Assembly: GCA_963827735.1 (NCBI GenBank)
Contig: CAWHBO010000001.1
Coordinates: 40,297-104,296 of the forward strand
Reading direction: 5' to 3'
Source: Candidatus Parcubacteria bacterium
GTDB lineage: Bacteria; Patescibacteriota; Patescibacteriia; Patescibacteriales; UBA12075
Length of the DNA: 64,000 nt
Both the position numbers and the translations under genes were made by a program. The stretch's first letter is position 1, and each line of letters begins with the position of its first letter. The notes under the pieces were generated by a model that was not told the origin of the DNA, searched no databases, and saw nothing but the letters and a program-made list of their open reading frames with translations. Below, one piece after another: positions 2,564 through 58,822 of the stretch.

Positions 2564-4015
2564 ATGAGAATAAACAACATAGCCAAAAACACCTCCTACT
2601 TCACCCTCGCCCTCATCCTCCAAAAGGCGCTCAGTTTTGCGTACTTTACCATTCTTGCGCGTAATTTTGTTCCTGATGATCTTGGAAAATATTACTTTGC
2701 CATTTCTTTTACGGCCATCTTCGCCATCATGATTGATCTTGGATTTGCGAATGTGATAACGCGCGAAGTTGCGAAAGCGGGGGAGCGGGCCGGGGAGATT
2801 GCGCGCGCGGTAATAGCCATGAAAATTCCGCTCGCTATCTTGTCGCTTTTATCCGTGGTATTTTTGATAAACCTTTTACACTATCCCGAAAGCACCAAAC
2901 TGCTTGTTTATTTTTCCGCCATTTGCATGACCCTTGACTCCTTCACCCTGGCTTTCTATGCCGTCAGCCGCGGCCGGCATAACCTGAAATTTGAAAGCGT
3001 TGGCTCAGTTGTTTATCAGGTGATTGTTTTGCTTACAGGGATAACGGTCATAAAATTAAATCTCGGATTGGCTTGGCTCATGGCCGCGACCATATCGGCG
3101 AGCCTCATTAACTTTATTTTTTCCTGGGCGGTTCTTAAAATTAAGTGGGGGATAAGTCCTTTGCCTTTTACGGGGGGTTTCAAGTTTGATAAGGTTTTAA
3201 CTCGCGCTCTCGTTGCAATTGCCATACCATTCGCGCTATACGGCATTTTTCAGCGTTTATACATGTATCTGGACAGCGTATTCTTATCCATCCTCGCCGG
3301 CGATTACCAAGTTGGAATTTACCAAGTGCCGTTTAAGATTGTCTTTGCTTTGCAATTCTTGCCATCAGCCTTCATGGCCTCGCTTTATCCGGCGTTTGCG
3401 AGTTATTGGCGGGGTGAAAAAAACCAACTCGCAATTTCTTTTGAACGCGCCATGAACTACCTGACAATCATTGCCTTGCCGGTAAGCGTCGGTGTGATTA
3501 CCCTTGCGGACAAGATTGTAAAATTGTTCAAAACCGAGTATACTGATGCCATCCTTCCGCTCCAACTGGTGATGATCGCCCTTTTTTTCATTTTCATTAA
3601 CTTCCCGATCGGCGCCCTGCTCAACGCCTGCGACCGGCAGAAACGCAACACCTTGAACATGGGCATTGTCCTCGTTGCCAGTATAATTTTAAACCTCTGG
3701 CTGATTCCCAAATTTCAAGCGGTCGGCGCCAGCATAACCGTGATCATCACGAACATTTTGATGTTTATCCTGGGCGCGCTGGTTGTGCCAAAGATCGCAC
3801 CCGTCAGCTTAAGCAAGCTGATTTGGCCATTCTTAAAATCCATTTTCGCAGTTGCCTGCATGGCCTTGATCGTGCTAACATTAAAACCGTACTTGAACAT
3901 ATTTATCGTGATCGCGCTTGGCGGAATGGTCTATGTTTTGTTGCTTTTTGCGATGGGGGGTTTTAGCCGAGAGGATGTGAAGAGTGTTTGGAGGTCTTTT
4001 TCTCATAACTCATAA
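2564..4015 (+). CDS. Wzx-type polysaccharide flippase (MOP superfamily)
   Basis: About 14 hydrophobic segments; IAKNT..ARNF..GKYYFA..DLGF..ITREVA N-terminal signature. Confidence 0.9.
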   Translation: MRINNIAKNTSYFTLALILQKALSFAYFTILARNFVPDDLGKYYFAISFTAIFAIMIDLGFANVITREVAKAGERAGEIARAVIAMKIPLAILSLLSVVFLINLLHYPESTKLLVYFSAICMTLDSFTLAFYAVSRGRHNLKFESVGSVVYQVIVLLTGITVIKLNLGLAWLMAATISASLINFIFSWAVLKIKWGISPLPFTGGFKFDKVLTRALVAIAIPFALYGIFQRLYMYLDSVFLSILAGDYQVGIYQVPFKIVFALQFLPSAFMASLYPAFASYWRGEKNQLAISFERAMNYLTIIALPVSVGVITLADKIVKLFKTEYTDAILPLQLVMIALFFIFINFPIGALLNACDRQKRNTLNMGIVLVASIILNLWLIPKFQAVGASITVIITNILMFILGALVVPKIAPVSLSKLIWPFLKSIFAVACMALIVLTLKPYLNIFIVIALGGMVYVLLLFAMGGFSREDVKSVWRSFSHNS

Positions 4016-4031
4016 CTTGGAACTCATAACT
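4002..4031 (+). repeat. Left arm: CTCATAA/CTTGGAA heptamer array
   Basis: ctcataa-ctcataa-cttggaa-ctcataa-ct; supplies the flippase stop codon. Confidence 0.9.
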
Positions 4032-4033
4032 TT

Positions 4034-4378
4034 ATGGCTTTCCATGATGATCTAAAAAAATACGTTCACGAGTATATAAAATTTATTTATAATATAACAA
4101 AATCTTTTCCCAAAGAAGAAATGTATGGCGTAACTTCACAGTTCAGGCGAGCAGGTATGTCAATTATGTTAAATTATATTGAGGGTTACGCCAGAAACAA
4201 TAAAACCAAAGAAAAAGTATATAAAAATTTTTTGGAAACTTCTTATGGTTCACTTAAAGAGTCAAAATATTTGTTATTTTTTTCATTTGATATAAAATAT
4301 ATTAACAAAGATAATTATACCTACGGCTTGGAATTGTCTGACAAGATCGGAGCTATGCTCTGGAGCTTAATTCAATAA
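4034..4378 (+). CDS. Four-helix-bundle protein (23S rRNA IVS protein / bAvd-like family)
   Basis: FPKEEMYGVTSQFRRAGMSIMLNYIEG and FLETSYGSLKE match the family consensus FPxxExYGLxSQxRRAAxSIxxNIxEG..GSxxE. Confidence 0.9.
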   Translation: MAFHDDLKKYVHEYIKFIYNITKSFPKEEMYGVTSQFRRAGMSIMLNYIEGYARNNKTKEKVYKNFLETSYGSLKESKYLLFFSFDIKYINKDNYTYGLELSDKIGAMLWSLIQ

Positions 4379-4425
4379 ATGAGTTATGCGTTATGAGTTC
4401 CAAGTTATGAGTTCCAAGTTATGAG
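4379..4425 (-). repeat. Right arm: TTATGAG/TTCCAAG heptamer array, inverted relative to 4002-4031
   Basis: atgag-ttatgcg-ttatgag-ttccaag-ttatgag-ttccaag-ttatgag; the last unit supplies the ATG of the next gene. Confidence 0.9.
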
Positions 4426-5569
4426 AGTACTCCTCTTCACTCTAGAATACCCTCCCTTCAAAGGCGGCGTTGCCAACTTTTACGAAAACATTGTAAAACA
4501 TTGGCCCTCCTGCGCTGAAGCTTCGGAGGGCAAGCCTTCCTTCGCTGAAGCTTCGGAGGGCAAGCCCTCTTTGGGAATTTTCGTCTTGCACAACAATAAC
4601 AACAACTTAATAAGCAATAACTTCTTCCCCAAATGGCTGCCGGCTTTTTGGCAACTGTATAAAGCGATCAAAAAAAATAAGATAGACCATGTTTTGGTTG
4701 GGCATATCTTACCGCTCGGCACAGTAACATACTATATTTCAAAAATTCTTAAAATTAAATATTCCGTTTTTCTCCACGGCATGGATCTGGCTTTTTCTCA
4801 AAAGACTCAACGCAAGAAAAACATGAGCCTTAAAATTTTAACGCACGCGTCAAAAATTCTCTGCACCAATTCTTACGTAGCCGAGCTTGTCCGCGAGACG
4901 CTTCCCGATGAAGACAGCCATGATAAGATTGAAGTCATCAATCCCGGAGTGGAGGCGCCGTATATTTCCGGCACAGACACCCGCGCCTTGCAAGAAAAAA
5001 ACAAGCTGGGCGAAAAGCTGGTTTTGTTTACCATCAGCCGGCTGGTAAAAAGAAAAGGCCATGACCTGGTCATAAAAATCATGCCCCAGTTAACGGAAAA
5101 ATATCCCAATCTTTTTTATTATATCGCGGGAACCGGAGAAGATGAGGACTATTTGAAAGATTTGGCCAAGGGCAATGACCATATCATCTTCCTCGGCAAG
5201 CTCAAAGAAAGAGACAAATGGAACTGGCTCTGCGCCTGCGACATTTTCGTCATGCCCTCCAGGCATATAGGTGATGATTTTACGCCAAATGATTTTGAAG
5301 GCTTCGGCATCGTTTATTTGGAAGCGGCAATCTGCGGTAAACCGGTCATAGCCGGCAGAAGCGGAGGCATAGAAGATGCAGTTGTTGACCACGAAACCGG
5401 CATCCTCGTTGATCCTGAAAGCGAAGATAGCATTTTGGACGGCATTGACGAGCTGGCGGGAAATTTTTTGCTCCGAAAAGAAATGGGGGAAAGAGCGCTG
5501 GAAAGAGCGGCGGAAGAATTTAACTGGGGGGATAAGGCGAAGGAGATATATGAGAGGATTGCGGAATAG
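4421..5569 (+). CDS. Glycosyltransferase family 4 (PimA/PimB-like)
   Basis: YPPFKGG, SRLVKRKG and EGFGIVYLEA..GKPVI motifs. Confidence 0.9.
   Translation: MRVLLFTLEYPPFKGGVANFYENIVKHWPSCAEASEGKPSFAEASEGKPSLGIFVLHNNNNNLISNNFFPKWLPAFWQLYKAIKKNKIDHVLVGHILPLGTVTYYISKILKIKYSVFLHGMDLAFSQKTQRKKNMSLKILTHASKILCTNSYVAELVRETLPDEDSHDKIEVINPGVEAPYISGTDTRALQEKNKLGEKLVLFTISRLVKRKGHDLVIKIMPQLTEKYPNLFYYIAGTGEDEDYLKDLAKGNDHIIFLGKLKERDKWNWLCACDIFVMPSRHIGDDFTPNDFEGFGIVYLEAAICGKPVIAGRSGGIEDAVVDHETGILVDPESEDSILDGIDELAGNFLLRKEMGERALERAAEEFNWGDKAKEIYERIAE
4505..4564 (+). repeat. 2 x 30-bp palindromic element inserted in frame in the GT4 gene
   Basis: CCCTCCTGCGCTGAAGCTTCGGAGGGCAAG followed by CCTTCCTTCGCTGAAGCTTCGGAGGGCAAG; encodes PSCAEASEGK/PSFAEASEGK. 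Confidence 0.9.
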
Positions 5570-5604: not shown

Positions 5605-5682
5605 CTCATAACTTGGAACTCATAACTCGTAACTTTTTTAGTCAAATAATTTAAGTTCCAAGTTATGAGTTACGAGTTATGA
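5605..5682. repeat. Empty inverted heptamer-array element (same units as the four-helix-bundle flanks, no cargo gene)
   Basis: ctcataa-cttggaa-ctcataa-ctcgtaa, about 20 nt AT-rich spacer, then ttccaag-ttatgag-ttacgag-ttatga. Confidence 0.9.
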
Positions 5683-23297: not shown

Positions 23298-24350
23298 ATG
23301 TACGAAGATGTAAAACAAAAATTCAGCGAACTTGAGAAAAAGCTTTCTGACCCGAAAATTGCTTCTGACATCAAAAAAATGACTCAAATTTCCAAAGAGC
23401 ACACAGCCCTAAGAGAAGTTATGGTTATGATTTTTGAGTTGGAAAAAACTGAAAAAAATCTTCAAGATAACCAAGATATCATAAACAATGAAACTGATGC
23501 CGATCTAAGAGAAATGGCTCAAAGCGAACAAGAGACCCTTGCAAACAAGATTACGGAGCTTAAAAAAGACATCAACAGCGAGCTTAACCCGCCGGATCCG
23601 AATGATAAAAAAGACGTAATCATGGAAATCCGAGCCGGAACCGGCGGCGATGAATCAGCGCTTTTCGCAGCTGACCTTTTCCGGATGTATTCCCGTTTTG
23701 CCGAACGCCAAGGTTGGAAAATTTCCATTCTTGATTCCAGTCCCATCGGAATCGGCGGGTACAAAGAGATCATTTTTGAAATTACCGGAAAAAATGTTTT
23801 TGGATTCTTAAAATATGAAAGCGGCACTCACCGCGTCCAACGCGTTCCGGAAACTGAAAAAGCCGGTCGGATACACACTTCCGCGGCTACGGTCGCAGTG
23901 TTGCCGCAAGCCGAGGAAGTTGACGTTGAGATCAGACCTCAAGACTTGAAAATTGACACATATTGCTCTTCCGGACCGGGCGGGCAGAGCGTTAACACGA
24001 CATATTCCGCCATCAGGATAACTCATTTGCCGACAGGACTCGTGGTAACGTGCCAAGACCAGAGATCCCAACAGCAAAACAAGATCAAAGCCATGCAGAT
24101 CTTGCGTTCTCGTCTTTATGAAAAACTGGAAAATGACAGGCACGCTTTGGAGGCGGCGGACAGGAAACAGCAGATCGGATCAGGTGATCGTTCTGAAAAA
24201 ATCCGGACTTACAATTTTCCTCAAGACCGCATAACCGACCATCGCATCAAGCAGTCATGGCATTCCATCACGCGCATCATGGACGGTGAAATTTTGGAGA
24301 TCATTTTAGCTTTAAAGAAAGCATCCCAAGATATTTCGCAACCAAAATAA
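23298..24350 (+). CDS. prfA: Peptide chain release factor 1
   Basis: [16 protein letters not shown] (PxT), GPGGQSVN and [12 protein letters not shown] motifs. Confidence 0.97.
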
Positions 24351-24364
24351 ATAAATACATTGCA

Positions 24365-25321
24365 ATGCTCATAAAAGAAGCGATAAAATACGCAACTGAA
24401 AAATTGCAAACGGCAAAAATAAAAAATCCGCGCCTGGAAGCGGAATTTTTATTATCCCATATCCTGAAAAAATCGCGAGAATATATCTTATCTTATCCGG
24501 AAAAAAAATTAATAAAAATTCAAGTTATGCGTTTTGAGTTATGCGTTACGCAAAGATTAAGGGGTATGCCGCTGGCCTATATTGTCGGCCACAAAGGATT
24601 CTACGGCCTGGATTTCAAGGTTAATAAAAATGTCCTTATCCCCCGTCCGGAAACGGAACTTATGGTTGATAATGTCTTGGAACTCATAACTCGTAACTCA
24701 CAACTTAAAACTCAAAACTCACTTGTACCCGAATGGGCAAAACTTTTAATCATTGATGTCGGCACCGGGAGCGGTTGTATCGCAATCTCACTTGCCAAAC
24801 AATTAAAAAGTTACGAGTTACGAGTTCCAAGTTACGAGATTTATGCGACTGATATCTCCAAACCGGCTCTTATGGTAGCCAAACAAAACTCCAAATCCAA
24901 TAAGGTATATGGCCAGATAAAATTTTTTCCTGGCGATTTACTTGAGCCGGTTATAGATAAGTTACGAGTTACGAGTTATGAGTTACAAGTAATCATCACC
25001 GCCAACCTCCCCTACGGCTGGTCTGCCTGGAAAAACAACACATCAGCCGATACCATAGGTCTAAAATTTGAACCTCAAATCGCCTTGTTTACCGGGAAAA
25101 ATGGTCTTGAGCTTTATGAAAAATTATTTAATCAAATAACAAATATTATTTCAATATCCAAATATCCCAATATCCCAATATCCCTACTCTGTGAATTTGA
25201 TCCCAGACAAACCGCTCAATTAAAAAAAATGATCAAAAAAATTCTTCCAAAGTCAACGACAGTAATAAAAAAAGACCTGAGCGGCCTTGATAGATTGGCA
25301 ATAATAAAAATCCAAAATTAA
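24365..25321 (+). CDS. prmC: Release factor glutamine methyltransferase carrying five in-frame repeat arrays
   Basis: PLAYIVG, VLIPRPETE, DVGTGSGCIA and ANLPY motifs; follows prfA. Confidence 0.93.
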   Translation: MLIKEAIKYATEKLQTAKIKNPRLEAEFLLSHILKKSREYILSYPEKKLIKIQVMRFELCVTQRLRGMPLAYIVGHKGFYGLDFKVNKNVLIPRPETELMVDNVLELITRNSQLKTQNSLVPEWAKLLIIDVGTGSGCIAISLAKQLKSYELRVPSYEIYATDISKPALMVAKQNSKSNKVYGQIKFFPGDLLEPVIDKLRVTSYELQVIITANLPYGWSAWKNNTSADTIGLKFEPQIALFTGKNGLELYEKLFNQITNIISISKYPNIPISLLCEFDPRQTAQLKKMIKKILPKSTTVIKKDLSGLDRLAIIKIQN

Positions 25322-58320: not shown

Positions 58321-58333
58321 ATAAGTCTTAATG

Positions 58334-58366
58334 TTATGAGTTATGAGTTATGAGTTATGAGTTATG
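58334..58366. repeat. Solo (TTATGAG)4+ heptamer array overlapping the iscU stop
   Basis: Same unit as the four-helix-bundle flanks; gives IscU the ..THNS* tail, like the flippase ..SHNS* tail. Confidence 0.9.
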
Positions 58367-58719
58367 TAATCTTTGATTGCCGCCTGCAAAGCATCAACTC
58401 CAAGCATGGAACAGTGAATTTTCTGCACCGGCAAGCCGCCAAGATCGTTTACGATTGAATCTTTGGTAATTTTCAAAGCTTCATCCAAAGTTTTTCCCTT
58501 CACCAACTCTGTCAACGCCGAAGACACGGCAATCGCCGCGGCGCAACCAAGAGTTTCAAACTTTATATCTTTGATTTTGTTGTCCTTGATCTTTAAATAG
58601 ATCTTCATCACATCGCCGCAAGTCGGATTGCCTTCCTGCCCAATGGCATCGGCATCCTCAATCACACCCTGATTGCGGGGATTCTTGAAATGATCCATTA
58701 CTTTGTCAGTATACATCAT
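58348..58719 (-). CDS. iscU: Fe-S cluster scaffold IscU/NifU N-terminal type
   Basis: DHFKNPRN, GNPTCGD, GCAAAIA and LPVQKIHCS motifs. Confidence 0.93.
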   Translation of the reverse strand: MMYTDKVMDHFKNPRNQGVIEDADAIGQEGNPTCGDVMKIYLKIKDNKIKDIKFETLGCAAAIAVSSALTELVKGKTLDEALKITKDSIVNDLGGLPVQKIHCSMLGVDALQAAIKDYITHNS

Positions 58720-58760
58720 AATGTTAATTTAAATTACAAAATAAAACCTTTAATGATCTA

Positions 58761-58822
58761 TTTCTAATTTCTAATTTCTAATTTCTAATTTCTAATTTCT
58801 AATTTCTAATTTCTAATTTCTA
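58761..58822. repeat. Perfect (TTTCTAA)8+ heptamer microsatellite
   Basis: 8 exact units plus TTTCTA, overlapping the Rrf2 stop codon. Confidence 0.95.

Follow-up and report, generated by a model that had tools for sequence, protein, structure and literature searches.

In the 64,000-nucleotide (nt) window analysed here, a stretch of a Candidatus Parcubacteria genome, the gene for the release-factor glutamine N5-methyltransferase, prmC (24365-25321), contains four arrays of GTTAYGA-type heptamers and one array of the octamer CAATATCC, all of them read in frame. Comparison with orthologues showed that, in this Patescibacteria lineage as well as in one Omnitrophota genome at least, PrmC has had repeat slots at these five segments for a long time. 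Since related bacteria carry arrays at the same five places, the arrays appear to be old and fast-changing and not the product of a fresh invasion. We consider it probable that the slots change rapidly, are filtered by selection and hold arrays without a dedicated role. Features lie on the plus strand unless stated otherwise.

prmC and its five repeat arrays

The sequence and its predicted fold point to a working release-factor methyltransferase gene. The open reading frame (ORF) of 318 amino acids (aa) is intact and lies 14 nt downstream of its partner prfA (23298-24350; release factor 1, RF1; Pfam PCRF and RF-1), which served as a repeat-poor control. The product contains the PrmC_N helical domain (Pfam PF17827, 3.4e-19, residues 5-75), also matches methyltransferase domains, and resembles solved HemK/PrmC chains at the sequence level (2.2e-21). 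Using Foldseek, an AlphaFold model built on 29 orthologues (mean predicted local distance difference test score, pLDDT, of 89; predicted template modelling score, pTM, of 0.87) was matched to HemK (1nv8, TM score 0.88 on target) and to the PrmC-RF1 complex (2b3t, 0.90). We call prmC intact on the strength of the full ORF, the domains, the chain matches and this superposition.

Foldseek and the alignment assign PrmC to the class I methyltransferase fold with a glycine-rich S-adenosylmethionine (SAM) motif. This motif, DVGTGSG (aa 131-137; 24755-24775), is native sequence, and its residues D131, G133, T134, G135, and G137 are invariant among the 29 orthologues. The catalytic motif IV of PrmC has the canonical form NPPY; here it reads NLPY (N214, L215, P216, and Y217; 25004-25015), is invariant in 29/29 orthologues and is, judging from the alignment, probably a conservative variant. 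The nearest PrmC proteins among named records come from Patescibacteria metagenome-assembled genomes (Falkowbacteria, Magasanikbacteria, and Moraniibacteriota). The loop that follows NLPY (25016-25075) is a tryptophan-rich variant, 4 aa longer, common to the source genome (G000) and to orthologues L002-L004, and was modelled at low confidence (pLDDT block means 58-73).

The five arrays had been described in an original prediction made from the letters of the window. Its array positions were accurate to within 1-2 nt, and the peptides that it quoted are present in the translation of the prmC ORF. Slot 1 (s1, 24524-24551) consists of GTTATGC/GTTTTGA/GTTATGC/GTTACGC and encodes V54-T62, within the helix formed by residues 51-65. 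Slot 2 (s2, 24677-24722, minus strand) is made of about 6.5 reverse units of the TCRTAAC type (TTGGAAC/TCATAAC/TCGTAAC/TCACAAC/TTAAAAC/TCAAAAC/TCAC) and encodes L105-L120, which form the end of helix 95-117 and the loop preceding strand beta-1 (pLDDT of 59 in block 111-120). Slot 3 (s3, 24810-24838; GTTACGA/GTTACGA/GTTCCAA/GTTACGA) encodes S149-E158 in the loop preceding strand beta-2. Slot 4 (s4, 24961-24989; GTTACGA twice, GTTATGA, and GTTACAA) encodes K199-V209, covers a helix end, a loop and the start of beta-4, and directly precedes NLPY. Slot 5 (s5, 25152-25184) contains 4.1 copies of the octamer, scores 59 with 92% matches in Tandem Repeats Finder (TRF), and encodes S263-L274 in the loop preceding beta-5. 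DVGTGSG does stand between s2 and s3, so that inverted arrays bracket it, as had been noted.

The two-unit pattern GTTAYGAGTTAYGA, with at most one mismatch, has 15 matches in the window against 0.06 expected, a number that was reached by 0/100 shuffles. The AATATCCC octamer family forms 6 exact two-copy arrays genome-wide, and a stretch of 30 nt from s4 is repeated, with its frame unchanged, in another ORF of this genome, which is 6008 aa long (C3:296000-296030).

The view that the arrays are tolerated in loops holds for four slots, which are helix-to-strand connections before beta-1, beta-2, beta-4, and beta-5, differ in length from one orthologue to another and were modelled with lower confidence (pLDDT block means 59-78). 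It does not hold for s1, an ordered helix with a pLDDT of about 98. From the known topology of class I methyltransferases, the four connections would occupy that edge of the Rossmann sheet which is opposite to the SAM/NLPY site. The creation of new peptide, also claimed, is limited to three slots, with gains of about 12 aa (s2), 6-7 aa (s3), and 3-5 aa (s5); compared with orthologues, the protein is not lengthened by s1, s4 or the first five units of s2. A gap-free alignment, which the original prediction had counted as evidence against inserted segments, was found for s1 in all orthologues, yet 9 of them carry a period-7/8 array at this position.

Repeat slots are shared among PrmC orthologues

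The five slots were defined from G000 prmC alone and comprise 86 of its 318 residues. The orthologue set consisted of 29 PrmC of the same family and order (30 loci, of which the N-terminally cut L026 was dropped), and arrays were counted at a TRF score of at least 27. One slot or more is occupied by a period-7/8 array, usually with other units, in 20 of the 28 other orthologues, which gives 48 occupied ortholog-slot cells. With G000 included, occupancy among the 29 orthologues is 9 for s1, 14 for s2, 8 for s3, 14 for s4, and 7 for s5; the s1 array of G000 itself was not called by TRF at the score threshold used. Six arrays lie outside the slots, four of which are A-rich runs near residue 300. 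For the prfA control, 25 orthologues with a total of 25.2 kb yielded 8 weak arrays. Arrays in prmC orthologues peak at 27-32 nt in length.

An independent set of named records gave the same picture, with slot arrays in 10/11 Patescibacteria-like PrmC genes. Among 29 more distant PrmC from Clostridia, Acholeplasmatales, Flavobacteriia, Dojkabacteria, Omnitrophota and others, one Omnitrophica gene has arrays in both s2 and s4 and one other gene has a weak slot array. This pattern of occupancy suggests that the slots are permissive places of the fold, which are filled wherever a genome makes such repeats.

Slot 3 of L003, L009, L011, and L020 contains a GC-rich segment of 24-34 nt with internal inverted repeats, in frame, which in three of these four orthologues splits the heptamer array in two; L011 has a near-perfect 16-bp palindrome there. 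These segments resemble small hairpin elements nested in heptamer arrays.

The comparison also bears on the possibility that repeats were collapsed or mis-joined into prmC during assembly or binning. The genome is a 1.34-Mb draft of 8 contigs with an estimated contamination of 5.1% and a contig GC content from 0.40 to 0.46, so the bin may not be fully clean. Against such an artefact, the full-length ORF can be aligned with 28 orthologues over its entire extent, its product is predicted to adopt the PrmC fold, and independent assemblies carry arrays at the same places; we regard it as extremely unlikely.

Phase variation, in which prmC would be a contingency gene with a frame switched by gain or loss of 7-nt units, has the arithmetic on its side: 7 is not a multiple of 3, single-unit slippage therefore shifts the frame, and a heptanucleotide case (neuO) exists elsewhere according to the portion of the literature consulted. 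Phase-variable loci are marked by a long pure tract of polymorphic length in the population, however, whereas in prmC no array exceeds 4-6.5 units and matches amount to 82-92%; such short, impure tracts suppress slippage. Moreover, there are five arrays in one housekeeping gene that forms an operon with prfA, and 29/29 orthologues are in frame, which makes a switch of this kind very improbable.

Stop-prone units are altered inside genes

Within every 21 nt of a heptamer array, the unit is met in each of the three reading phases, and a pure GTTATGA array therefore makes a stop in any frame (TGA in the forward and TAA in the reverse orientation). In agreement with the original prediction, every stop-making unit in prmC is changed, which keeps the gene open: 5/5 units in the stop-prone phase are altered, to TGC, CAA, CGA, CGA, and CAA. 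Across the 15 in-ORF arrays of the GTTAYGA family genome-wide, stop-prone units are altered in 16/16 cases compared to 12/35 for units in the safe phase (p 6e-6). For the reverse orientation inside ORFs, the corresponding numbers are 6/6 and 1/16, and between genes TAA is lost in just 5/166 units. Consensus units account for 17/51 units inside ORFs but for 123/166 outside (p 2e-7). The additional claim that TTATGA is kept where the frame is safe is correct only in part: TAA is kept in 2/2 units of the reverse array of prmC, and the T is kept in 1/3 safe-phase units of the forward arrays.

Any surviving ORF must show stop avoidance, which is thus proof of selection and not of a special mechanism. 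A dedicated stop-avoiding mechanism, which we considered, is unnecessary: altered units are also found at safe phases and between genes, where the variants GTTACGA, GTTATGC, and GTTCCAA occur too.

The same signature was seen for AAATTAG/CTAATTT, the commonest exact heptamer repeat of the genome with 45 arrays. AAATTAG arrays lie within three different genes, the in-frame TAG always being changed to TTG or TGG, and an identical 33-nt variant of the array is common to two genes.

The prmC heptamer belongs to a dispersed repeat family

The GTTAYGA heptamer is one of many dispersed families of 7/8-nt repeats in this genome, which are mostly intergenic and form one-handed hairpins. TRF returned 418 period-7 rows versus 32-36 in three second-order Markov simulations, and 239 period-8 rows versus 44-52 in three such simulations. 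Merging yielded 261 period-7 arrays, of which 153 are intergenic, 58 lie at ORF edges and 50 are inside 34 ORFs; 211/261 thus lie between ORFs or touch an ORF end, even though ORFs make up about 88.5% of the genome in the crude longest-ORF gene set used for this assignment. The copy number has its mode at four units (2:58, 3:52, 4:67, 5:23, 6:3). Genes with in-ORF arrays encode ValRS, LeuRS, the CCA-adding enzyme, KsgA, and a MiaB-like protein, and further carriers are radical-SAM proteins, glycosyltransferases, a FemAB protein and giant ORFs.

The GTTAYGA family comprises 53 arrays genome-wide, 15 of them inside ORFs and 4 of these in prmC. Arrays of the family are present on 7/8 contigs. Adjacent arrays of opposite orientation follow the order reverse-then-forward in 16/17 cases, the sole exception being s1/s2 of prmC; outside prmC, intergenic opposite-strand pairs show this order 15 to 0. 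An intergenic hairpin in the window (5605-5682) illustrates it, with a reverse arm at 5605-5634, which has a 19-mer in common with prmC s2, and a forward arm at 5661-5682. That the prmC arrays and the intergenic hairpin arms are the same repeat family, as initially proposed, is supported.

The original prediction had gone further and named the repeat after a four-helix-bundle gene, the arms of which were thought to invade other genes. This gene (4034-4378; 114 aa, 23S_rRNA_IVP family, Pfam PF05635, 6.3e-25) lies between a left hairpin arm of reverse heptamers (4002-4031, minus strand) and a right arm of forward heptamers (4379-4425), which form one hairpin through a 24-nt exact inverted match. 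A twin of the cassette is found on another contig (C8:66246-66724, gene C8:66305-66601). Arms of such a mobile cassette could have recently invaded prmC at five points, the inserts surviving in loops. In favour of this, the same heptamer wraps both genes with an identical arm spacing of 359 nt, the arm order of s2/s3 is that of the intergenic hairpins, and 4/15 in-ORF arrays of the family sit in prmC. However, the genome contains seven four-helix-bundle genes, of which just two are wrapped by the GTTAYGA heptamer, two by inverted arms of other repeats, and two have same-orientation arrays on both sides, while one has no arrays; the proposed name is therefore too narrow for a family of 53 arrays. 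We found no inserted cassette between s2 and s3, where all 29 orthologues have native, invariant PrmC sequence, and this interval is the most conserved native part of PrmC. In addition, slots are filled in 20/28 other orthologues, s2 is homologous across several families, and s1, s4 and most of s2 add no length. A recent invasion is thus contradicted, and the orthologue comparison has already largely refuted this explanation; we consider it very unlikely.

In ORF-bearing 23S rRNA intervening sequences, four-helix-bundle/S23p genes lie inside a stem. The cassette at 4002-4425 is similar in that a four-helix-bundle gene is placed within a long inverted repeat. Unlike those sequences, its arms are tandem repeats and it is not located in rRNA; the similarity concerns the cassette and not prmC.

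Age and turnover of the arrays

At least 10 orthologues, drawn from several families, have a homologous array at s2 that is 12 codons long (five units and one additional base), keeps the same frame and has an AAC anchor in every unit. The s2 of G000 is this five-unit array extended by further units and a short tail, which account for its additional 12 or so aa. Turnover is visible within a single genus, g13. Its s2 contains unrelated units in three genomes, each encoding exactly 16 aa. Its s4 encodes 19 aa in each and consists of four copies of CAATCAC in one genome, four copies of CAATCCC, which differs by one base in all copies, in another, and an unrelated unit in the third. Identity within the genus is 56-60% in the slots versus 73-80% outside. 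Because the g13 units of s2 and s4 differ at identical length, whole blocks seem to have changed by length-preserving replacement, that is, they were overwritten and not inserted. The change from CAATCAC to CAATCCC in all four copies appears to show homogenisation of a whole array.

We therefore favour an explanation in which the prmC arrays would be tolerated products of a repeat-generating process. The slots would change by point mutation, by homogenisation of whole arrays, for example through slippage in frame-preserving 21-nt steps, and occasionally by replacement with another unit at constant length. Purifying selection would remove every stop-creating or frame-breaking variant, which would explain both the mostly stop-free units on the sense strand and the alteration of stop-prone units at precisely the in-frame phase. 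That such filtered slots hold arrays without a dedicated role is, as stated above, the probable reading.

The idea that each genome draws its prmC arrays from its own dispersed families had a mixed outcome. AGACAGC is dispersed in all three g13 genomes (18, 13, and 4 pattern matches), and GTTATGA is present in 13/41 genomes. Three copies of AACTTTC occur in G026 only in prmC and in G001 in prmC and at one other site; for this unit, the reversed-pattern control is a rotation of the same unit and so void. CAATCCC is found at only two places in G012.

Several observations weigh against old, selection-filtered slots without a role. The slots are not obligatory, since 8/29 orthologues lack any array, and related genomes are not independent samples. 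The division into coding and intergenic arrays depends on the crude gene set mentioned above, and alteration in the safe phase inside genes (12/35) is not significantly above the intergenic rate (42/166; p 0.30). Simple slippage does not predict a mode of four units, and replacement by unrelated units at constant length has no known mechanism. Furthermore, the first 32 nt of s2 are identical (32/32) between G000 and orthologue L008 from genome G020, whereas identity between the two prmC genes is 59% outside the slots and 42% when third positions are taken alone, and their s4 sequences share 29/33 nt. Nearer PrmC relatives, L002-L004, with 64-67% nt identity and the same variant of the substrate loop as G000, have a decayed s2 with 22-25/35 matches. 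A purely neutral, fast-changing repeat should not give such a frozen s2. A homogenising donor is not evident either, as G000 has the shared 19-mer at only two sites and G020 has it at one, within prmC.

That the 32-nt identity arose because a common structured element was copied repeatedly is not supported; the 19-mer core is too rare, with 2, 1, and 1 copies in G000, G020, and G022, respectively, and none in the other 38 genomes. A near-consensus s2 (28-31/35) occurs only in 3 genomes that hold the GTTATGA family (76, 27, and 9 pattern matches), whereas s2 scores 21-26/35 in seven genomes without it.

Possible functional or actively maintained arrays

The frozen s2, its decay where the family is missing, the 30-nt copy of s4, and the potential stem between s2 and s3 keep alive a functional or actively maintained reading. 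The arrays could be functional nucleic-acid elements, with s2/s3 (or s2/s4) forming a stem in the prfA-prmC mRNA that would act as a signal for double-strand RNA processing or for stability, comparable to the stems of rRNA intervening sequences, or with the repeats serving as sites for a repeat-specific protein. s3 is complementary to s2, and a 22-bp stem with one mismatch is possible; the RNA fold of 24660-24855 has a free energy of -53 kcal/mol and a z of -3.94, and equal stability was reached by 0/200 shuffles. A functional element would explain conservation at the nucleotide level: the 32/32 identity with G020 includes every third position, the arm order agrees with 15/15 intergenic opposite-strand pairs, and near-consensus s2 coincides with the presence of the GTTATGA family. 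On the other hand, the slots of most orthologues contain non-complementary units, so that pairing is not a conserved feature of prmC, and L006 has a near-consensus s2 without a complementary partner. Taken together, we judge a role of this kind unlikely.

It is possible, if rather doubtful, that some bacteria, in this case a Patescibacteria lineage, have an active, as yet undescribed process which writes and re-writes blocks of about four heptamers at existing repeat sites while keeping their length, and that it reaches coding slots in essential genes as well. Under this view, a machinery that writes or corrects sequence, rather than passive slippage, would have left the arrays behind as its footprint. 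Hints in this direction are the four-unit mode in units unable to form quadruplexes, the equal-length swap of unrelated units within one genus with whole arrays changing unit together, the arm order of 15 to 0 in intergenic hairpins, and the 32-nt array that is frozen at 59% gene identity and decayed where the family is missing from the genome.

Relation to known heptamer repeats

Heptamer over-representation is known in many bacterial genomes. The short tandemly repeated repetitive (STRR) heptamers of heterocystous cyanobacteria comprise several coexisting tandem families per genome, and their function is not known. The repeats described here likewise belong to multiple coexisting heptamer families but differ in phylum and units; we know of no description of coding-slot behaviour for STRR. 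In Borg elements, in-ORF repeats reportedly have unit lengths divisible by three. This is not the case for the 7- or 8-nt units found here; the encoded peptide therefore repeats every 7 or 8 aa, the unit is read in each of its three phases, and in-frame stops have to be avoided. The tandem repeats of Borgs create disordered protein regions (PMC9879509), and the prmC arrays are like them, as far as the consulted part of that article goes, in being fast-evolving, lying inside an ORF and adding new peptide segments.

The genome shares the hallmarks of dispersed heptanucleotide families, namely many tandem copies above chance, enrichment between genes and at gene ends, and a preference for about four units. 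In the sections consulted, Rehm et al. (2015; PMC4692102) report over-represented heptamers such as GGGAATC of Xanthomonas and GGGGA(C/T)T of Nostoc, which are dispersed, rarer in coding regions and show a four-unit preference that the authors ascribe to G-quadruplex formation. The same sections cite three tandem heptanucleotides in Calothrix PCC 7601 and state that detailed literature on heptamers is lacking. Compared with these G-rich units, those of the prmC genome are rich in A, T, and C and unable to form G-quadruplexes, yet they have the same four-unit mode; and, unlike the Xanthomonas and Nostoc heptamers as portrayed there, the arrays here fill conserved in-frame slots of housekeeping genes. 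According to the portion seen of Aklujkar et al. (2009; PMC2700814), Geobacter has elements of four heptamers at 49 sites, both inter- and intragenic, and some genes contain more than one. These resemble the prmC arrays as four-unit blocks inside as well as between genes. They were interpreted as regulatory RNA, and in that portion, the alignment supplement aside, we found no analysis of frame, stop avoidance or orthologous position. Topical literature searches found no report of in-frame heptamer arrays at conserved positions and none of such repeats in Candidate Phyla Radiation genomes.

prmC thus offers a clean, comparable system, with five fixed positions in a well-understood enzyme and arrays that can be aligned across dozens of genomes. 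Since the positions are fixed and comparable, the surrounding gene can serve as a yardstick for how fast units change, become homogenised and are replaced, and stop avoidance and strand choice are readable signatures of selection on a mutational process. The arrays also show that 7-nt repeats can encode an ordered helix besides a loop. If the replacements and the frozen 32-nt array do reflect an active mechanism, it would amount to a novel way in which genomes are maintained or edited.

Other repeats in the window

A pure GTTATGA array of 4.9 units (58333-58366; 100% matches) is located at a gene boundary. Together with a perfect array of nine ATTTCTA units (58760-58822), it flanks a 123-aa ORF on the minus strand (58348-58719). 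A 7731-aa ORF (C1:19139-42334), of which the C-terminal end lies at 2-2038 of the window, contains 8 in-frame arrays of 7- or 8-nt units; an octamer array of the (C)CAATTTC type occurs in it four or five times, widely spaced and encoding nearly the same peptide. The ORF at 4421-5569, a low-GC gene, contains 2.2 copies of a GC-rich 30-nt unit (4504-4569; 91% matches), which is read in frame and has its own short inverted repeat.

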